DNA of 26,027 nucleotides from Actinomycetes bacterium (GTDB taxonomy: Bacteria > Actinomycetota > CALGFH01). Of this stretch, positions 1 through 14,873 are shown one piece after another (within the stretch, counting starts at the first letter, position 1; each line of letters opens with the position of its first letter). The DNA is taken from positions 1-26,027 of the forward strand of contig DATABK010000656.1 of the NCBI GenBank assembly GCA_036259695.1, in the 5' to 3' direction. Below the pieces are notes generated by a model. It saw nothing but the letters and a program-made list of their open reading frames with translations. It was not told where the DNA came from and ran no database searches. Position numbers and translations under genes: made by a program.

Positions 1-1490
1 CGGAGCCGGGTCCGCTCGGGCGGGCCCCGGACCACCGGGAGGGTGACCACGAAGGTCGTGCCGTGGCCGACGGCCGACTTCACCGTGATCGTCCCCTCGT
101 GGGCCTGGACGACCCAGCGGGTGATGGCCAGGCCGAGCCCCGACCCGGCCATGCCGCGGACGCCCGGGGCGCGCCAGAAGCGGTCGAACACGTGGTCCAG
201 GTGGCCCTCGGCGATGCCCATGCCGGTGTCGCGCACGGCCAGCTCGGCCGTCCCGTCCTCGGCCCCCAGGCGCAGGTCGATCGTGCCCGCCCGGGTGTAC
301 TTGAGGGCGTTGTCGACCAGGTTCCAGACCGCCCGGCGCAGGTCGTCGCGGTCGCCCGAGACCCAGACCTCGGGCAGCGGGCCCAGCGTCACCTCGACCT
401 CGGGGGCGGCCATGCGCAGGGCGTCGCGGTGCACGTCGGCCAGCAGGTGGTCGAGCCGGAATGTCCGCCGGGCCGGGGTGGCCACCGCCGCCTCCAGCCG
501 GGCCAGGGCCAGCAGGTCGCCGACCAGCGACTCCATCCGGCGCAGCTCGATGAGCACGTCGCCCAGCGCCTCGACCCGGTCCTCGGTGCGGGCGCCCGGT
601 ACCCGGGCCAGGAACTCGACGTTGGTGCGGATCGCGGTCAGCGGCGTCCGCAGCTCGTGGGAGGCGTCGGCGACGAAGCGGCGCTGGGAGTCCAGGGTCG
701 TCTTGAGCCCCAGGTTGGCCTGCTCGAGCTCGGCCAGCATCTGGTTGAACGACAGCGACAGGCGGCCGAGCTCGTCATGGGGGTCGCCGTCGACCGGCAT
801 GCGGTGGGAGAAGTCGCGCTCGTCGCCGATCCGCTGGGCGGTGGCCCGCATGCGGGCCAGGGGCCGGAGCAGGGCCGCGGCCAGGCCGAGGCCGAGGAGG
901 GCGGCGACCAGCAGCACGGCCAGCCCGCCGGCGATCAGGATGGTCCGCAGCAGCCGCAGGGACCGCTCGACCCCGGCCAGGGACCGGGCCACCGTGACCT
1001 GGCCCTCCAGCCGGACGGTCTCCCGTGGCGTCTCGGGCGCCTTGATGCCGGGCTGCCGCACGGCCTTGCTGGCCTTGAAGCGCTCGGCGTAGACGGCCAG
1101 GGGCAGGCCGAGCTGGTTGGCCGACGGCCGCACGTTCACCACCTTGCCCGGCTCGACACTGGGCAGGTCGACCCCGGCCAGGGTGTCGGCCGGGTGCTTG
1201 GCCTCGATGGCCAGCGCCAGGTCCTGCTCCTTGCGGGTCTCGACCACGATGTAGGTGTCGCGTTCCTGCCCGTTGGACCACTGGGCGAGGGTGGCCCCGG
1301 CCCGCTCGGCGGTGGTGTCGTAGTCGTCGGCCAGGACCTTGGCCAGCTGGATGCTCTGGCGCTGGACCGAGCCGTAGAACTCCTGGTGGAGGTTGCGGTC
1401 GACGTAGGCGTAGACCCAGAACCCGAACCCGGACAGGGCCGTGGTCAACAGGACCAGGTAGGCCAGGGTGAGCCGGGCCCGGAAGGTCAC
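1..1490 (-). CDS. Sensor histidine kinase (HAMP-HisKA-HATPase, MprB-like); 3' end runs off the window
   Basis: My translation from GTG at 1490 (GTGA overlap with the regulator stop) shows an N-terminal TM, a second TM plus HAMP, H-box FVADASHELRTPLT, N-box WNLVDNALKY, G1 RDTGMGI, F-box VFDRFWR and G2 GSGLGLAI. No stop before base 1, which is why the ORF track lacks it. Confidence 0.93.
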   Translation of the reverse strand, partial: MTFRARLTLAYLVLLTTALSGFGFWVYAYVDRNLHQEFYGSVQRQSIQLAKVLADDYDTTAERAGATLAQWSNGQERDTYIVVETRKEQDLALAIEAKHPADTLAGVDLPSVEPGKVVNVRPSANQLGLPLAVYAERFKASKAVRQPGIKAPETPRETVRLEGQVTVARSLAGVERSLRLLRTILIAGGLAVLLVAALLGLGLAAALLRPLARMRATAQRIGDERDFSHRMPVDGDPHDELGRLSLSFNQMLAELEQANLGLKTTLDSQRRFVADASHELRTPLTAIRTNVEFLARVPGARTEDRVEALGDVLIELRRMESLVGDLLALARLEAAVATPARRTFRLDHLLADVHRDALRMAAPEVEVTLGPLPEVWVSGDRDDLRRAVWNLVDNALKYTRAGTIDLRLGAEDGTAELAVRDTGMGIAEGHLDHVFDRFWRAPGVRGMAGSGLGLAITRWVVQAHEGTITVKSAVGHGTTFVVTLPVVRGPPERTRL

Positions 1491-2179
1491 CGGCTCCCCT
1501 CCGGGTCCTCGCGCAGGACGTAGCCGACCCCGCGGACGGTGTGGATGATCCGCGGCTCGCCCTCCGTCTCGAGCTTGCGGCGCAGGTAGCCGACGTAGAC
1601 CTCCAGGACGTTGGAGTCGCGGCCGAAGTCGTAGTCCCACACCCGCTCCAGGATGGTCGAGCGGGTCAGGACCTGGCGCGGGTGCTCCAGGAACAGGGCC
1701 AGCAGGTCGAACTCCTGGCGGGTCAGGGAGATGGTCCGCTCGCCCCGCCAGACCTCGTGGGTCGAGCGGTCCATGCGCAGGTCGCCGAAGCGCAGCTCGG
1801 CCGACCCGGAGCCGTTGCGGCCCCGGCGCAGCAGCGCCTTCACCCGGACCAGCAGCTCCTCGAAGGCGAACGGCTTGACCAGGTAGTCGTCGGCTCCGGC
1901 CTCGAACCCGGCCACCCGCTCGGGCACCTCGCTGCGGGCGGTCAGCATGAGCACGGCCACCTCCCCGGCCTGCCGGAGCCGCCGGCAGACCTCGAGGCCG
2001 TCGATCCCCGGCAACAGCACATCCAGGATGACCAGGTCGGGCGGGTGGTCGAGGGCCCGGCCGAGGGCCTCCTCGCCGGAGGCGGCCACCTCGACCTCGA
2101 ACCCCTCGTAGGCGAGCGGCCGGCGAAGGGCGGCGGCCAACAGGGGATCGTCGTCGACGACCAGGATGTGCGCGCCCAT
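1487..2179 (-). CDS. OmpR/PhoB-family response regulator (MprA-like), 230 aa
   Basis: MGAHILVVDDD acidic pocket, LVILDVLLPG phospho-Asp, MLTA, GADDYLVKPF, winged helix ending IHTVRGVGYVLR. The upstream extension to 2392 in the ORF track does not look like protein. Confidence 0.95.
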   Translation of the reverse strand: MGAHILVVDDDPLLAAALRRPLAYEGFEVEVAASGEEALGRALDHPPDLVILDVLLPGIDGLEVCRRLRQAGEVAVLMLTARSEVPERVAGFEAGADDYLVKPFAFEELLVRVKALLRRGRNGSGSAELRFGDLRMDRSTHEVWRGERTISLTRQEFDLLALFLEHPRQVLTRSTILERVWDYDFGRDSNVLEVYVGYLRRKLETEGEPRIIHTVRGVGYVLREDPEGSR

Positions 2180-2202
2180 GCACCTGCCGTCCTGACCGAG
2201 CC

Positions 2203-2311
2203 GCCCGAGGCGGCGACCTCGACCTCGAAGCCCTCGTAGGCCAGCGGCCGGCGAAGGGCCGCGGCCAGCAGGGGGTCGTCGTCGACGACCAGGATGTGTG
2301 CGCCCATGCAC
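2203..2311 (-). repeat. Second, truncated copy of the response regulator 5' end (direct repeat of 2075-2183)
   Basis: 109-nt direct repeat with a 128-nt period and a 19-nt spacer. 8 substitutions, all synonymous; both copies encode MGAHILVVDDDPLLAAALRRPLAYEGFEVEVAASG. Confidence 0.95.
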
Positions 2312-2396
2312 TACCACCGATGGACCGGCCGCCGTCGGGGCGGCGCTCGCTGGTTGCTGCCTTGATCCCATTCTGCCTGCTCGGCAGCCCAATTGC

Positions 2397-5021
2397 CTAG
2401 CTCGGCGCTGTCACCGGGTGCTCGCGGCGGGCGTCGGTGGGCAGTCGGTCGGGGCGGAGGCCCTTGAACGACGCCGCCCGGAGCTTGTCGTCCTGGGTCC
2501 ACTTGAGGTACTCGACCTCACACACCAGCTCCGGCCGGACGAAGCGGGCCCCGCGGGGCCGGGGGGTGCCCTCGAAGCCCTCGAACTGGGGCTTGTCGAC
2601 CTGGAGGGCCTCCAGCTTGGCCAGCAGGTCGGCCAGGAAGGCGTGGGTGAAGCCGGTGCCGACGTTGCCGGCGTAGCGGAGCCGGCCGCCGTCGTAGGTG
2701 GCCAGCAGCAGCGAGCCCAGGGTGGCCGACCGGCCGCCCTTGCCCGGGGTCCAGCCGACGATCACGCAGTCCTGGAGACACAGCGCCTTGATCTTGCGCC
2801 AGTCGTGCGAGCGGGTCCCGGGCCGGTAGGGGCTGGCCGCCCGCTTGGCCACGATCCCCTCCAGCTGGAGCGCCTTGACGTGGTCGAAGAAGTCCCGGCC
2901 GGCCCCCTCCACCACCTGGGAGAGCCGGATGTCCTTGGTTTCCACCAGCACCTCGACGAGCCGGGCCCGCCGCTCGACCAGGGGCAGCTCCAGCAGGGAC
3001 TGGCCGTCCAGCCACAGCAGGTCGAAGGCCAGGAACTGGACCGGGACCCGGCCCTTGTTGCGGGCCAGCTCGTCCGGGGTGCGGTGGAAGCGGTCCTGCA
3101 TCCGCTCGAACGACGGCCGGCCGTCCCGGTCCAGGGCGACGATCTCGCCGTCGACCACGGCGTTGCGGGCCGCCAGCTGGCGGTGCATGTCGATCAGCTC
3201 CGGGAACTGGGCGGTCATGTCCCGGGTCGTCCGCGAGGTCAGCCGGGTCGAGGTCCCCAGGTTGGCCAGGCAGCGGTGCCCGTCCCACTTGACCTCGAAC
3301 AGCCACTCCTTGTCGTCGAACGGCTCGCTGGTCAGCACGGCCATCATCGGCTCGTAGGTCGGCGGCGGGGCCGGCTGGGGGAGCGACACCTTGCCCTTGA
3401 GGATGACCAGCCAGTCCCGGTCCCGGGTCCGGAACAGGTGGTACTCGGCCCCCTGGTAGCGGCTCCCGTGGAGGCGGACGGTCAGCTTGCCGTCGGCCAC
3501 CTCCAGCGGCTCGTAGGTCCCGAGGTCGAACAGCCGGACCTCGCCCCCGCCGTACTCCCCGGCCGGGATGGTCCCGGAGAAGGTCAGGTACTCGAGCGGG
3601 TGGTCCTCGGTGTTGACGGCCAGGTGCCGCAGCCCCGGCTCCTCCGGCAGCCGCTTGGGCACGGCAAAGGAGACCAGCACCCCGTCCTGCTCGAACCGCA
3701 CGTCGTGGTGGAGCCGCCGGGCATGGTGCTGCTGAATGGTGAACCGCCGCCCCTCCTCCAAGGGCGCCACCTCGGTCAACCCGGCAGGGTGGGGCTCGTC
3801 CGGAAGGGGGGCTGTGGAGAGCGGAGCCGCCCCTTCCCCGGGGTCGGCTACCCTCCCGGTAGGGGCCCCGTTTCCCGGAGGCTGAGGGTCCCGCGCGCCC
3901 ACCGCCGGGCCGGGTGCGGGGGTGCCCGAGGGCTCCGGGGTGCGCTGGAAGTCGCGTTTGGCGACGTACTCGTCCAGGCTCGCCCGCGAGGCGGGGCGGG
4001 TGGTGCGCTTGGCGGGGAACCGGGGGCGGCCCCGGGGCTCCTCGGGGGCGCCTGGGGTGAGGCCGAGGGCCTCCATGGCCGCGGTCAGGGACTGCCTGTC
4101 GTCGAGGACCGGCCGGAACCGGTCGCCGTCGGCGAACCGGTCCCAGACGTTGTCGATCCGGAAGTCGTCCGGCTCGAGGTCGTCGTCCAGCTCCTCCCAG
4201 TCCAGCGGGGTCGACACCGGCGCCCCGGGCCTCGGCCGCAGCGAGTAGACGCTGGCGATGTTGGCCCCCGAACGGTTCATGTTGTGGTCGATGAAGACCT
4301 TGCCGGCCCGGTCGGCGACCGGCCAGGCCATGGTCGCCTTCTCGGGGTAGGCGCGGACGACCAGCCGGCCCACCCGCTCGACGAACTCGCGGGCGTCGCT
4401 ATGGGTGTGGGTGCCGTCCAAGGGGACGAACACCTGCATGCCGGTCGCTCCGGACGTCTTGGGATAGCCGCGCAGCCCGAGGCCGTCCAGCACCACCTTG
4501 ATGAGCTTGGCCACGGTGCGGACGTCCGCATAGGTGTAAGGCTCGAAGGGGTCGAGGTCGAAGAAGGCGTAGTCGGGCCGGTCGAGGGAGCCGGCCCGCG
4601 AGTGCAGGGGGTGCATCTCGATACAGCCGAGGTTGACCACGTACAGCAGGCTGGCCCGGTCCTGGGCGAGCACGAACTCGACCACCCGGGAGTCCTCCTC
4701 GGTCGGCACGGCCGCGGTGGGCAGCCAGTCAGGGGCGTGGGCCGGGACCTGCTTCTCGTAGAAGGGCTCGCCGGCCAGCCCGTCCGGCATCCGCTTCATG
4801 GTCAGCGGGCGGTCGCGCAGGTGGGGCAGGAGCAGGTCGGCGACGTTCCAGTAGTAGGCGAGCAGGTCGCCCTTGGTGATGCCATCGGCCGGCCAGTAGA
4901 CCTTGGTCAGGTTGGACAGCCGCAGCTCGCGGCCGCCGGCCTGCAGCCGCCAGGCGTCGCCGGACCGCCGGGCCGGCAGCGGCAAGGGAAACGGCAGGTC
5001 ACGGCGTTTGGCGCGAGCCAA
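2397..5021 (-). CDS. ligD: NHEJ DNA ligase D, polymerase-phosphoesterase-ligase order, 874 aa
   Basis: Pol domain (LSNLTKVYWP, FFDLDP, KTSG); PE domain (HHARRLHHDVRFE, TEDHPLEY); ATP-dependent ligase (EVKWDG, FLAFDLL, EGIVAK, WRKIK, VGTGF, LRAASFKGLR). TTG start preceded by AAGGAGG. Divergent from ku. Confidence 0.95.
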   Translation of the reverse strand: MARAKRRDLPFPLPLPARRSGDAWRLQAGGRELRLSNLTKVYWPADGITKGDLLAYYWNVADLLLPHLRDRPLTMKRMPDGLAGEPFYEKQVPAHAPDWLPTAAVPTEEDSRVVEFVLAQDRASLLYVVNLGCIEMHPLHSRAGSLDRPDYAFFDLDPFEPYTYADVRTVAKLIKVVLDGLGLRGYPKTSGATGMQVFVPLDGTHTHSDAREFVERVGRLVVRAYPEKATMAWPVADRAGKVFIDHNMNRSGANIASVYSLRPRPGAPVSTPLDWEELDDDLEPDDFRIDNVWDRFADGDRFRPVLDDRQSLTAAMEALGLTPGAPEEPRGRPRFPAKRTTRPASRASLDEYVAKRDFQRTPEPSGTPAPGPAVGARDPQPPGNGAPTGRVADPGEGAAPLSTAPLPDEPHPAGLTEVAPLEEGRRFTIQQHHARRLHHDVRFEQDGVLVSFAVPKRLPEEPGLRHLAVNTEDHPLEYLTFSGTIPAGEYGGGEVRLFDLGTYEPLEVADGKLTVRLHGSRYQGAEYHLFRTRDRDWLVILKGKVSLPQPAPPPTYEPMMAVLTSEPFDDKEWLFEVKWDGHRCLANLGTSTRLTSRTTRDMTAQFPELIDMHRQLAARNAVVDGEIVALDRDGRPSFERMQDRFHRTPDELARNKGRVPVQFLAFDLLWLDGQSLLELPLVERRARLVEVLVETKDIRLSQVVEGAGRDFFDHVKALQLEGIVAKRAASPYRPGTRSHDWRKIKALCLQDCVIVGWTPGKGGRSATLGSLLLATYDGGRLRYAGNVGTGFTHAFLADLLAKLEALQVDKPQFEGFEGTPRPRGARFVRPELVCEVEYLKWTQDDKLRAASFKGLRPDRLPTDARREHPVTAPS

Positions 5022-5037
5022 CGAAGGCCAGTCCTCC

Positions 5038-5066
5038 TTCAGTTGCGTTGCTCGCCAGCGTACAGT
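5038..5066. promoter_or_regulatory. Putative bidirectional promoter core between ligD and ku
   Basis: AGCGTACAGT (5057-5066) reads TACAGT on + and TACGCT on -, both TANNNT. TTCAGT lies 17 nt upstream of the + hexamer. Motif match only. Confidence 0.35.
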
Positions 5067-5143
5067 TGTCCTGGTCCGTGATCGTCGCCTTCGACGTGCC
5101 CGCCGCTCGCGGAGTGTTTCGACGTCAAAGGAGGCCTGGCTTC

Positions 5144-5971
5144 GTGAAGACGATCTGGAAGGGGGCGATCTCCTTCGGGCTGGTCACCATCCCCGTCCGG
5201 GTGTATGGGGCCACCGAAGCGAAGAGCCTCCGGTTCAACCAGCTGCACGAGCCCGACGGCGGCCGGATCCGCTACAAGCGGGTGTGCTCGATCGACGGGG
5301 AAGAGGTCGACTACTCGGAGATCGTCAAGGGCTACGAGTACGAGAAGGACCACTACGTCACCATCACCGACGAGGAGCTCGACCAGCTGCCGGTGCGCAC
5401 GGCCCGGGCGATCGAGATCGAGCGGTTCGTCGAGGCCGAGGAGATCGACCCGATCTACTTCCAGAAGGCCTACTACCTGGTGCCCGAGGGCACCGGGGTC
5501 AAGGCCTACCACCTGCTCCGGGAGGCGATGGCCGACGACGGCAAGGTCGCCCTGGCCAAGGTCGCCTTCCGAGACAAGGAGCACCTGGCCACCCTGCGGC
5601 TGCGGGACAACGTGTTCGTGCTGGAGACGATGTACTGGCCGGACGAGATCCGCACCCCCAAGTTCGACGTCCTGGACGAGTCGGTCGAGCTGCGGCCCCA
5701 GGAGATCCGCATGGCCCGCAGCCTGATCGACAGCCTCACCGACGCCTTCCAGCCCGAGGAGTTCCACGACGAGTACCGGGCGGCGCTCGAGGAGCTGGTC
5801 CAGAAGAAGATCCAGGGTGAGGAGATCACCTATACCGAAGAGGCCGAACCGTCTAAGGTGGTCGACCTGATGGAAGCGCTCAAGGCGAGCGTCGAGGCGG
5901 CCAAGGCCGGGAAGCCGGCCTCGGAGCCGAAGACCACCGGCCGGCGGCGCAAGAAGGCGGCAGGCGAGTAG
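5144..5971 (+). CDS. ku: NHEJ protein Ku, 275 aa
   Basis: GTG after AAGGAGG; KTIWKGAISFGLVTIPV, IVKGYE, DPIYFQKAYYL, VVDLMEALKAS and a basic C-terminal tail (GRRRKK). Confidence 0.97.
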   Translation: MKTIWKGAISFGLVTIPVRVYGATEAKSLRFNQLHEPDGGRIRYKRVCSIDGEEVDYSEIVKGYEYEKDHYVTITDEELDQLPVRTARAIEIERFVEAEEIDPIYFQKAYYLVPEGTGVKAYHLLREAMADDGKVALAKVAFRDKEHLATLRLRDNVFVLETMYWPDEIRTPKFDVLDESVELRPQEIRMARSLIDSLTDAFQPEEFHDEYRAALEELVQKKIQGEEITYTEEAEPSKVVDLMEALKASVEAAKAGKPASEPKTTGRRRKKAAGE

Positions 5972-14741: not shown

Positions 14742-14873
14742 TAGGCGAACACGGAGCTGGTCCGAACGGGCGCTGGGGGGCGTTCCAAGAGGACCACTTC
14801 CGCCCGCAGGACGGCCCAGGCCGTTCGGCCTAGGCCGAGAGGACACGGGAGGCGCGGGAAGCACGTTCGCCTA
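14742..14873. other. Structured intergenic element (candidate ncRNA or MITE)
   Basis: Perfect 9-bp terminal inverted repeat TAGGCGAAC / GTTCGCCTA enclosing three hairpins; no convincing ORF. Confidence 0.45.

Follow-up and report, generated by a model that had tools for sequence, protein, structure and literature searches.

The direct repeat at the start of the response regulator gene is, by our estimate with a probability of about 0.85, the product of a local assembly error in a soil metagenome-assembled genome (MAG) of mixed strains and low contiguity, and probably corresponds to the structure of no real chromosome. This estimate was reached by sequence comparison. The window, i.e., the whole stretch of DNA that was analyzed (26,027 nt), is the entire contig C656, the longest of the 880 contigs of genome G000. 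On both sides of the repeat it was compared to the common single-copy haplotype, designated T, for which the JGI contig L035 (10.8 kb) served as the reference. The two further alleles that were recognized in the repeat are designated V1 and V2.

A repeat search revealed 110 nt at positions 2074-2183 that recur at 2202-2311 with 93% identity and a start-to-start spacing of 128. This similarity is far above chance, and the repeat is the sole one of its kind in the window. Codon-by-codon comparison on the minus strand showed that copies A and B agree in 35 of 35 residues and differ in eight codons, all of them synonymous (A/B: codon 3, GCA/GCG; codon 11, GAC/GAT; codon 14, CTG/TTG; codon 16, GCG/GCC; codon 22, CTG/CTC; codon 26, GGC/GGG; codon 31, GTC/GTG; codon 34, TCG/TCC). 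Seven of the differences affect the third codon position, and the remaining one affects the first. The longest stretch identical between the copies comprises 23 nt, and they have no 31-mer in common. With the boundaries taken from an earlier note on this DNA, the spacer is 19 nt long (2184-2202). That note, made from the letters alone, had described a repeat with eight silent differences, which both the repeat search and the codon comparison bore out. It had also described a CCGAG pair at the junction, which we indeed saw at 2196-2200 and 2205-2209, and an ATG of the upstream copy (at 2307) followed by a frame shift into a 121-codon open reading frame (ORF), in agreement with the ORF coordinates. 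The features of the region are listed in Table 1.

Table 1. Features in and around the duplicated 5' end of the response regulator gene (window coordinates)
Feature	Position	Strand	Basis or remarks
Histidine kinase, 3' of the regulator	3-1493		Truncated by the contig end; HAMP, HisKA, HATPase_c
OmpR-family response regulator, 230 aa	1487-2179	-	Pfam Response_reg and Trans_reg_C
121-codon ORF made by the duplicate	1942-2307	-	35 receiver residues, rest out of frame
Copy B, the regulator's true 5' end	2074-2183	-	4 nt of leader and codons 1-35
Block with every non-T variant	2108-2268	none	12 substitutions, foreign leader, insert
Stretch missing from near-identical contigs	2115-2242	none	128 nt
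B-type leader (..GGTCAGGACGGCAG)	2184-2201	-	Alignment with relatives
Junction	2200-2214	-	Copy A codons 32-35 and GGC
Copy A, the upstream duplicate	2202-2311	-	4 nt of leader and codons 1-35
Native A-type leader and ligD-regulator intergenic region	2312-2396	-	Hairpin 2328-2344; motif GAGCAGGCAGAATGG at 2368-2382
ligD, upstream on the regulator's strand	2397-5021	-	Pfam: primase-polymerase, phosphoesterase and ligase domains
ku, divergent from ligD	5048-5971	+	Pfam

The regulator shows matches to PF00072 Response_reg (5.6e-31, 107 bits) and PF00486 Trans_reg_C (2.9e-28, 98 bits). With a receiver, a winged-helix Trans_reg_C domain and an adjoining histidine kinase, it belongs to the OmpR family, and the same 230-aa protein is encoded on 15 other contigs. 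The gene order ku-ligD-regulator-kinase was also found in L035 and in the relatives. A promoter and terminator scan of positions 1900-2600 detected none. The 121-codon ORF reached 19.9 bits for Pfam Response_reg, which is under the cut-off.

The regulator 5' end is present in one copy in 10 of 10 other genomes of the genus and in 10 of 10 other genomes of the family. In six relatives from the genus, the regulator body and the ligD end lie 125 to 128 nt closer to each other than in the window (e.g., 195 versus 323 nt). Furthermore, ten independent contigs, derived from nine JGI samples and one NCBI MAG, encode the identical 230-aa regulator, all of them with a single copy. From the ligD stop to the regulator ATG they comprise 89 nt (9 of 10 contigs) or 85 nt (L043), versus 217 nt in the window. 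The 95 nt ahead of the start codon, which correspond to the 89-nt spacer and the ligD end, are the same as in the window in five of eight spanning T-type contigs, while the other three (L037, L038 and L040) differ at one T/C site.

Logan contigs built at k = 31 from the runs X1, X8 and X9, which belong to three studies, align to 1866-2114 and then to 2243-2900, skipping exactly 128 nt, with one to three mismatches to the window per aligned piece. Since copies A and B share no 31-mer, these contigs do not represent a collapsed true duplication, and the single-copy haplotype T is therefore real. In summary, the duplication is absent from the independent assemblies of the near-identical population, comprising ten contigs and three Logan runs. 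When indexed public runs were searched with the words of 1900-2600, the maximum share was 0.69, which is about the share calculated for a single-copy T strain. In a second search, restricted to the 16 non-T words of 2102-2298, shares peaked at 0.38 (6/16), with several runs at 0.31; shares this small indicate no more than that the whole insert is contained in no indexed run. The public runs with the highest shares carry the single-copy form alone. In run X12, the G of the window and the A of the T type were present at similar depth at 2268, which suggests that letters of the copy A type (V1) occur there. This run also contains 6 of the 16 non-T words, and its depth over 2151-2232 stemmed from short contigs at 90% likeness or more. 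An exact look-up of the ORFs made by the duplication (121 aa and 301 aa) found neither on record, and gene callers may have skipped them.

Comparison to L035 revealed how the repeat is composed. The window has no mismatch to this contig over 94-2013 (1,920 nt) and three mismatches over 2269-5307 (3,039 nt). The earlier note had proposed comparing allele similarity on either side of 2190, and no allele break was observed there at large scale. Instead, the divergence is restricted to 2108-2268, where 12 substitutions, a different leader and a 128-nt insert lie between flanks that are 99.9 to 100% identical to T. Between the intergenic region and codon 13, copy A corresponds to T, and over codons 14-35 it corresponds to allele V1; it differs from T at codons 14, 19, 22, 24, 26, 31 and 34 (positions 2268, 2251, 2242, 2236, 2230, 2215 and 2206). 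Copy B corresponds to T from codon 26 onward and to allele V2 from codon 24 towards the start; it differs from T at codons 24, 19, 16, 11 and 3 (positions 2108, 2123, 2132, 2147 and 2171) and in the leader. The copies thus depart from the single-copy strain in complementary halves, which argues against slippage or unequal crossing-over. Moreover, codons 14, 16 and 22 are in conflict between the copies, and neither copy agrees with T throughout. Therefore, at least three haplotypes are threaded through 161 nt.

The leaders also differ in origin. The copy A leader (..CATCGGTGGTAGTGC) is of the type found in T and in G002. The leader in the spacer (..GGTCAGGACGGCAGGTGC) is B-type, as in G007, G008, G009 and the JGI contigs L033 and L034, and this type belongs to other species of the genus, unlike the strain that supplies both flanks. 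A tandem duplication from a single parent would not combine a B-type spacer with an A-type outer leader, the two being types of different species. With two natural leader types and at least three haplotypes among them, the joined pieces are alleles from different genomes. The exact 23-mer of the B-type leader had no match in the JGI metagenome contigs, and a relaxed 22-mer had only two there, both single-copy and from other lineages. Two other origins were considered and rejected. T is not a deletion derivative of a real duplication, since its private codons 19 (CGG) and 24 (TAT) occur in neither copy and the flanks are identical. Another locus of G000 did not qualify as the donor of copy A, since a search with 2184-2420 returned only the window itself and weak paralogues at 73 to 90% identity.

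In its natural context, the B-type leader is preceded by a hairpin, the sequence being GCCGCC-loop-GGCGGC-T-GGTCAGG (L029, L033 and L034). The place of this hairpin is taken in the window by copy A codons 32-35 (GCC GCC TCG GGC) together with GGC, reading GCCGCC-TCG-GGCGGC. The match that contains the out-of-register join thus measures between 4 and 13 nt. To the left of the join, only 94 nt are non-T, followed by 1.9 kb with no mismatch. To the right, the non-T stretch is limited to 67 nt (2202-2268), after which 3 kb show three mismatches. These are not the donor tracts of homology-facilitated illegitimate recombination, which would extend from the illegitimate join to a homologous anchor.

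These data can be accommodated by the following model. The contig would follow haplotype T on both sides and would switch, in register, to two co-occurring alleles at the conserved 5' end of the regulator gene. V1 would be reached from the ligD side, giving codons 14-35, and V2 from the regulator side, giving the B-type leader and codons 1-24. In homologous coordinates, the V1 and V2 stretches would overlap by approximately 130 to 140 nt, and they are too different to merge, the longest identical run being 23 nt. They would then have been concatenated out of register via a chance GC-rich match, GCCGCCTCGGGCG (4 to 13 nt), between the V1 codons 32-35 and the hairpin that precedes the V2 leader. 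The joining step itself was presumably a local-assembly or gap-closing stage operating at small k, or a chimeric library molecule that was taken up by the assembler.

The traces of the assembler are relevant to this step. In G000, 13 exact terminal repeats of at least 55 nt were found, 10 of them with a length of 57, 67, 77, 87, 97, 117 or 127 nt. These lengths suggest a de Bruijn assembler whose k rose in increments of 10 between 27 and 127, which we take to be the "meta-large" setting of MEGAHIT. As a point against misassembly, the match at the junction, of at most 13 nt, is below every main k of this inferred assembler, so that an artefact requires either local assembly or gap closing at small k, or else a read that was itself chimeric. 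Local assembly of the MEGAHIT/IDBA-UD type and gap closing of the SPAdes type use words or overlaps of about 10 to 11 nt. Notably, the period of the repeat (128) exceeds the largest k inferred here (127) by exactly 1; we found no mechanism for this, and it may be a coincidence.

G000 comprises 4.5 Mb with an N50 of 6.5 kb and is 94.8% complete, with 3.8% contamination. Its sequence is held only by soil-type metagenome runs, and thus the genome is metagenome-assembled. Between its contigs we detected 312 overlaps of at least 100 nt with 85 to 98% identity; most of the 60 longest ones listed run from contig end to contig end. We conclude that the bin mixes pieces of more than one closely related population. 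The unpublished genome G022 was not used in support of any claim.

Similar joins were observed elsewhere in G000. In contig C226 (L051), positions 1-196 duplicate its own 639-834, and 12 of 12 differences fall in one codon phase. Among nine matching relatives from the genus, five align to this contig only from position 185, one from 190, and three from further in. The join lies at a match of 7 to 12 nt (GGCGACAGCTCG versus GGCGGCAGCTCG). In contig C251 (L052), positions 4964-5414 at the contig end copy its own 3999-4450 (452 nt, 93.6% identity), and 22 of the 30 differences share one codon phase. G003, the sole relative that aligns up to this join, diverges beyond it, and the join is located at a 10-nt match, GGCCGGGCCG. 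Neither the C226 nor the C251 duplicate is present in the relatives from the genus. In the window itself, positions 1-93 show 21 mismatches to L035 within the 3' part of the histidine kinase gene, which looks like a strain-variant tail at a contig end. Further end duplicates were noted in C770, C298, C562, C183, C730, C711 and C493. The assembly thus contains mixed strains as well as other errors of the same type, as exemplified by the 312 overlaps, C226, C251 and window positions 1-93. That one fragmented bin shows three allele-like joins, each out of register and at a short GC-rich match, favors an assembly process over three biological events. Among the options of the earlier note, a two-strain assembly chimera is accordingly the one favored, by the single-copy state in relatives, contigs and Logan runs, by the presence of at least three haplotypes, by the strain mixing and by the joins in C226 and C251.

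The silent nature of the differences had been taken to mean that both versions were under selection at the protein level. To evaluate this, we refer to the same 35 codons in 13 single-copy orthologues, in which 586 of 632 codon differences (93%) are synonymous. Nine of the 13 orthologues encode the identical 35-residue peptide, and eight of eight silent differences have a probability of about 0.55 for two alleles. Alleles come from working single-copy genes that are under purifying selection in their own genomes, and therefore all differences are silent. The claim thus holds for the two versions as alleles of a single-copy gene in different genomes, but not for a fragment working in this one. 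As judged from these codon counts, the silent pattern reflects purifying selection on the gene in separate genomes and says nothing in favor of selection on the fragment. More generally, silent-only divergence between repeats in a MAG is no evidence that both copies function in one genome.

A real, recent and strain-specific rearrangement, in which a cell similar to T took up DNA from relatives and retained 35 codons of it as a dead fragment ahead of the intact gene, is unlikely. Its route would be homologous exchange at the outer ends combined with a microhomology join at the hairpin, by illegitimate recombination or by Ku/LigD end joining. Indeed, illegitimate joining could plausibly occur at a junction with GC-rich microhomology and a hairpin, natural alleles of the genus match the duplicated piece, and V1 letters are suggested by the data from X12. 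The independent contigs carry T and neither V1 nor V2, and hence speak only in part against a rare strain with a real duplication. However, such an event needs two donors, given the conflict between V1 and V2 at three codons, or a donor already carrying the junction, and it needs in-register exchange at both ends within 161 nt of a genome that is otherwise T. It was found in 0 of 20 relatives, 0 of 10 contigs and 0 of 3 Logan runs, and the two further joins of this kind at contig ends in G000 point to the assembly process. A few-base microhomology join beside homology, with DNA from close relatives, resembles homology-facilitated illegitimate recombination or capture by nonhomologous end joining. 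Unlike in these processes, the tract is only about 160 nt long, is a two-allele mosaic and has both outer ends in register; no donor-type flank follows, and it was seen in no independent sample. The proposal of the earlier note that a diverged allele arrived by transfer or end joining together with the adjacent ligD-ku block fits poorly, since the flanks on either side are identical to the common strain and the two outer switches keep the register. That the end-joining genes ligD and ku adjoin the repeat is a point contrary to misassembly, but the same gene order is present in single-copy relatives. It is likewise doubtful that the duplication exists in a rare soil strain as a 161-nt two-allele mosaic captured at the ligD-regulator hairpin, from which an expressed receiver fragment could titrate the kinase. 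If true, it would be a natural snapshot of the illegitimate integration of relatives' DNA beside end-joining genes, and modestly interesting.

An old tandem duplication kept by selection, with a receiver-fragment peptide or an upstream ORF that tunes the two-component system, is very improbable, even though both copies retain an ATG, a Shine-Dalgarno-like leader and an identical 35-residue peptide. It is absent from the searched relatives and the near-identical strains, and one lineage would not bear two species-type leaders between flanks identical to a single-copy strain. Silent-only differences are expected of alleles even without a function of the fragment, which in addition does not reach the cut-off of Pfam and continues in a shifted frame. 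As a short ORF that has its own start and lies ahead of the main gene while overlapping it, the structure is reminiscent of upstream ORFs and leader peptides of bacterial regulators. Unlike these, the ORF in the window occurs in no relative and copies the gene's own first 35 codons instead of being a dedicated leader. Conserved presence, as for an upstream ORF, was not observed (0 of 20 other family genomes, 0 of 13 independent contigs), and the regulatory ORF or receiver-fragment peptide considered in the earlier note found no support, since the search of relatives and near-identical strains did not turn up the duplicate in any of them. We regard as similarly remote a chimera formed in vitro, in which a template switch at the GC-rich 13-mer during library amplification bridged two low-coverage contig ends. 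The join at a GC-rich match and the low-coverage, fragmented assembly agree with it, and the facts in favor of misassembly count equally for it; however, chimeric molecules are rare, and for three like joins in one MAG an algorithm is the better-fitting cause.

Local assembly errors in MAGs that lack read support have been described, including 13 in one 1.1-Mb genome (Chen, Anantharaman, Shaiber, Eren and Banfield, 2020; PMC7111523). The window resembles these cases in having a short consensus stretch that is absent from independent assemblies of the population, in a fragmented bin with co-assembled strain variants. As in those cases, a gene start is damaged, a spurious ORF is made and several errors occur in one genome. 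Unlike those errors, which are defined by no read perfectly supporting the region, the case in the window is known from assembled contigs, and it looks like a tandem duplication with silent-only differences. It is also comparable to the unmerged allelic overlaps at contig ends, in that two allelic versions of one interval (about 128 to 141 nt) were both kept. Unlike the 312 overlaps left separate in G000, the ends in the window were concatenated out of register in one contig.

Most likely, then, the feature is not real biology. There is nothing unusual about the regulator, the kinase, ligD and ku, whose arrangement is that of all relatives, and the biological import is small. The case calls for caution, since a strain-mixed MAG may hold out-of-register allele splices within contigs that resemble duplications under purifying selection. 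Furthermore, the genome is a species representative, and annotations can therefore inherit both the altered gene start and the spurious ORF of 121 codons.

Several additional observations were made in the window. A 128-bp element at 14742-14873 was considered as a similar insert and rejected; relatives align straight through it, and it is therefore unrelated. A GCCGCC-loop-GGCGGC hairpin with a loop of 3 to 8 nt is kept between ligD and the regulator start across the genus, as seen in the intergenic region of the window and at the equivalent positions of L010-L020, L033 and L034. Two leader types occur among the aligned species of the genus, one containing AGGACGG and the other GGTGGT. The intergenic motif listed in Table 1, located directly past the ligD stop, is invariant in 12 of 12 aligned spanning sequences, namely, window copy A and 11 relatives, one of which is from another genus of the family. 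A second GGCAG follows 16 nt downstream of it, at 2355-2363 on the minus strand (AAGGCAGCA). This site is a candidate for the promoter or an operator that serves the regulator-kinase operon, and may be an autoregulatory direct repeat.
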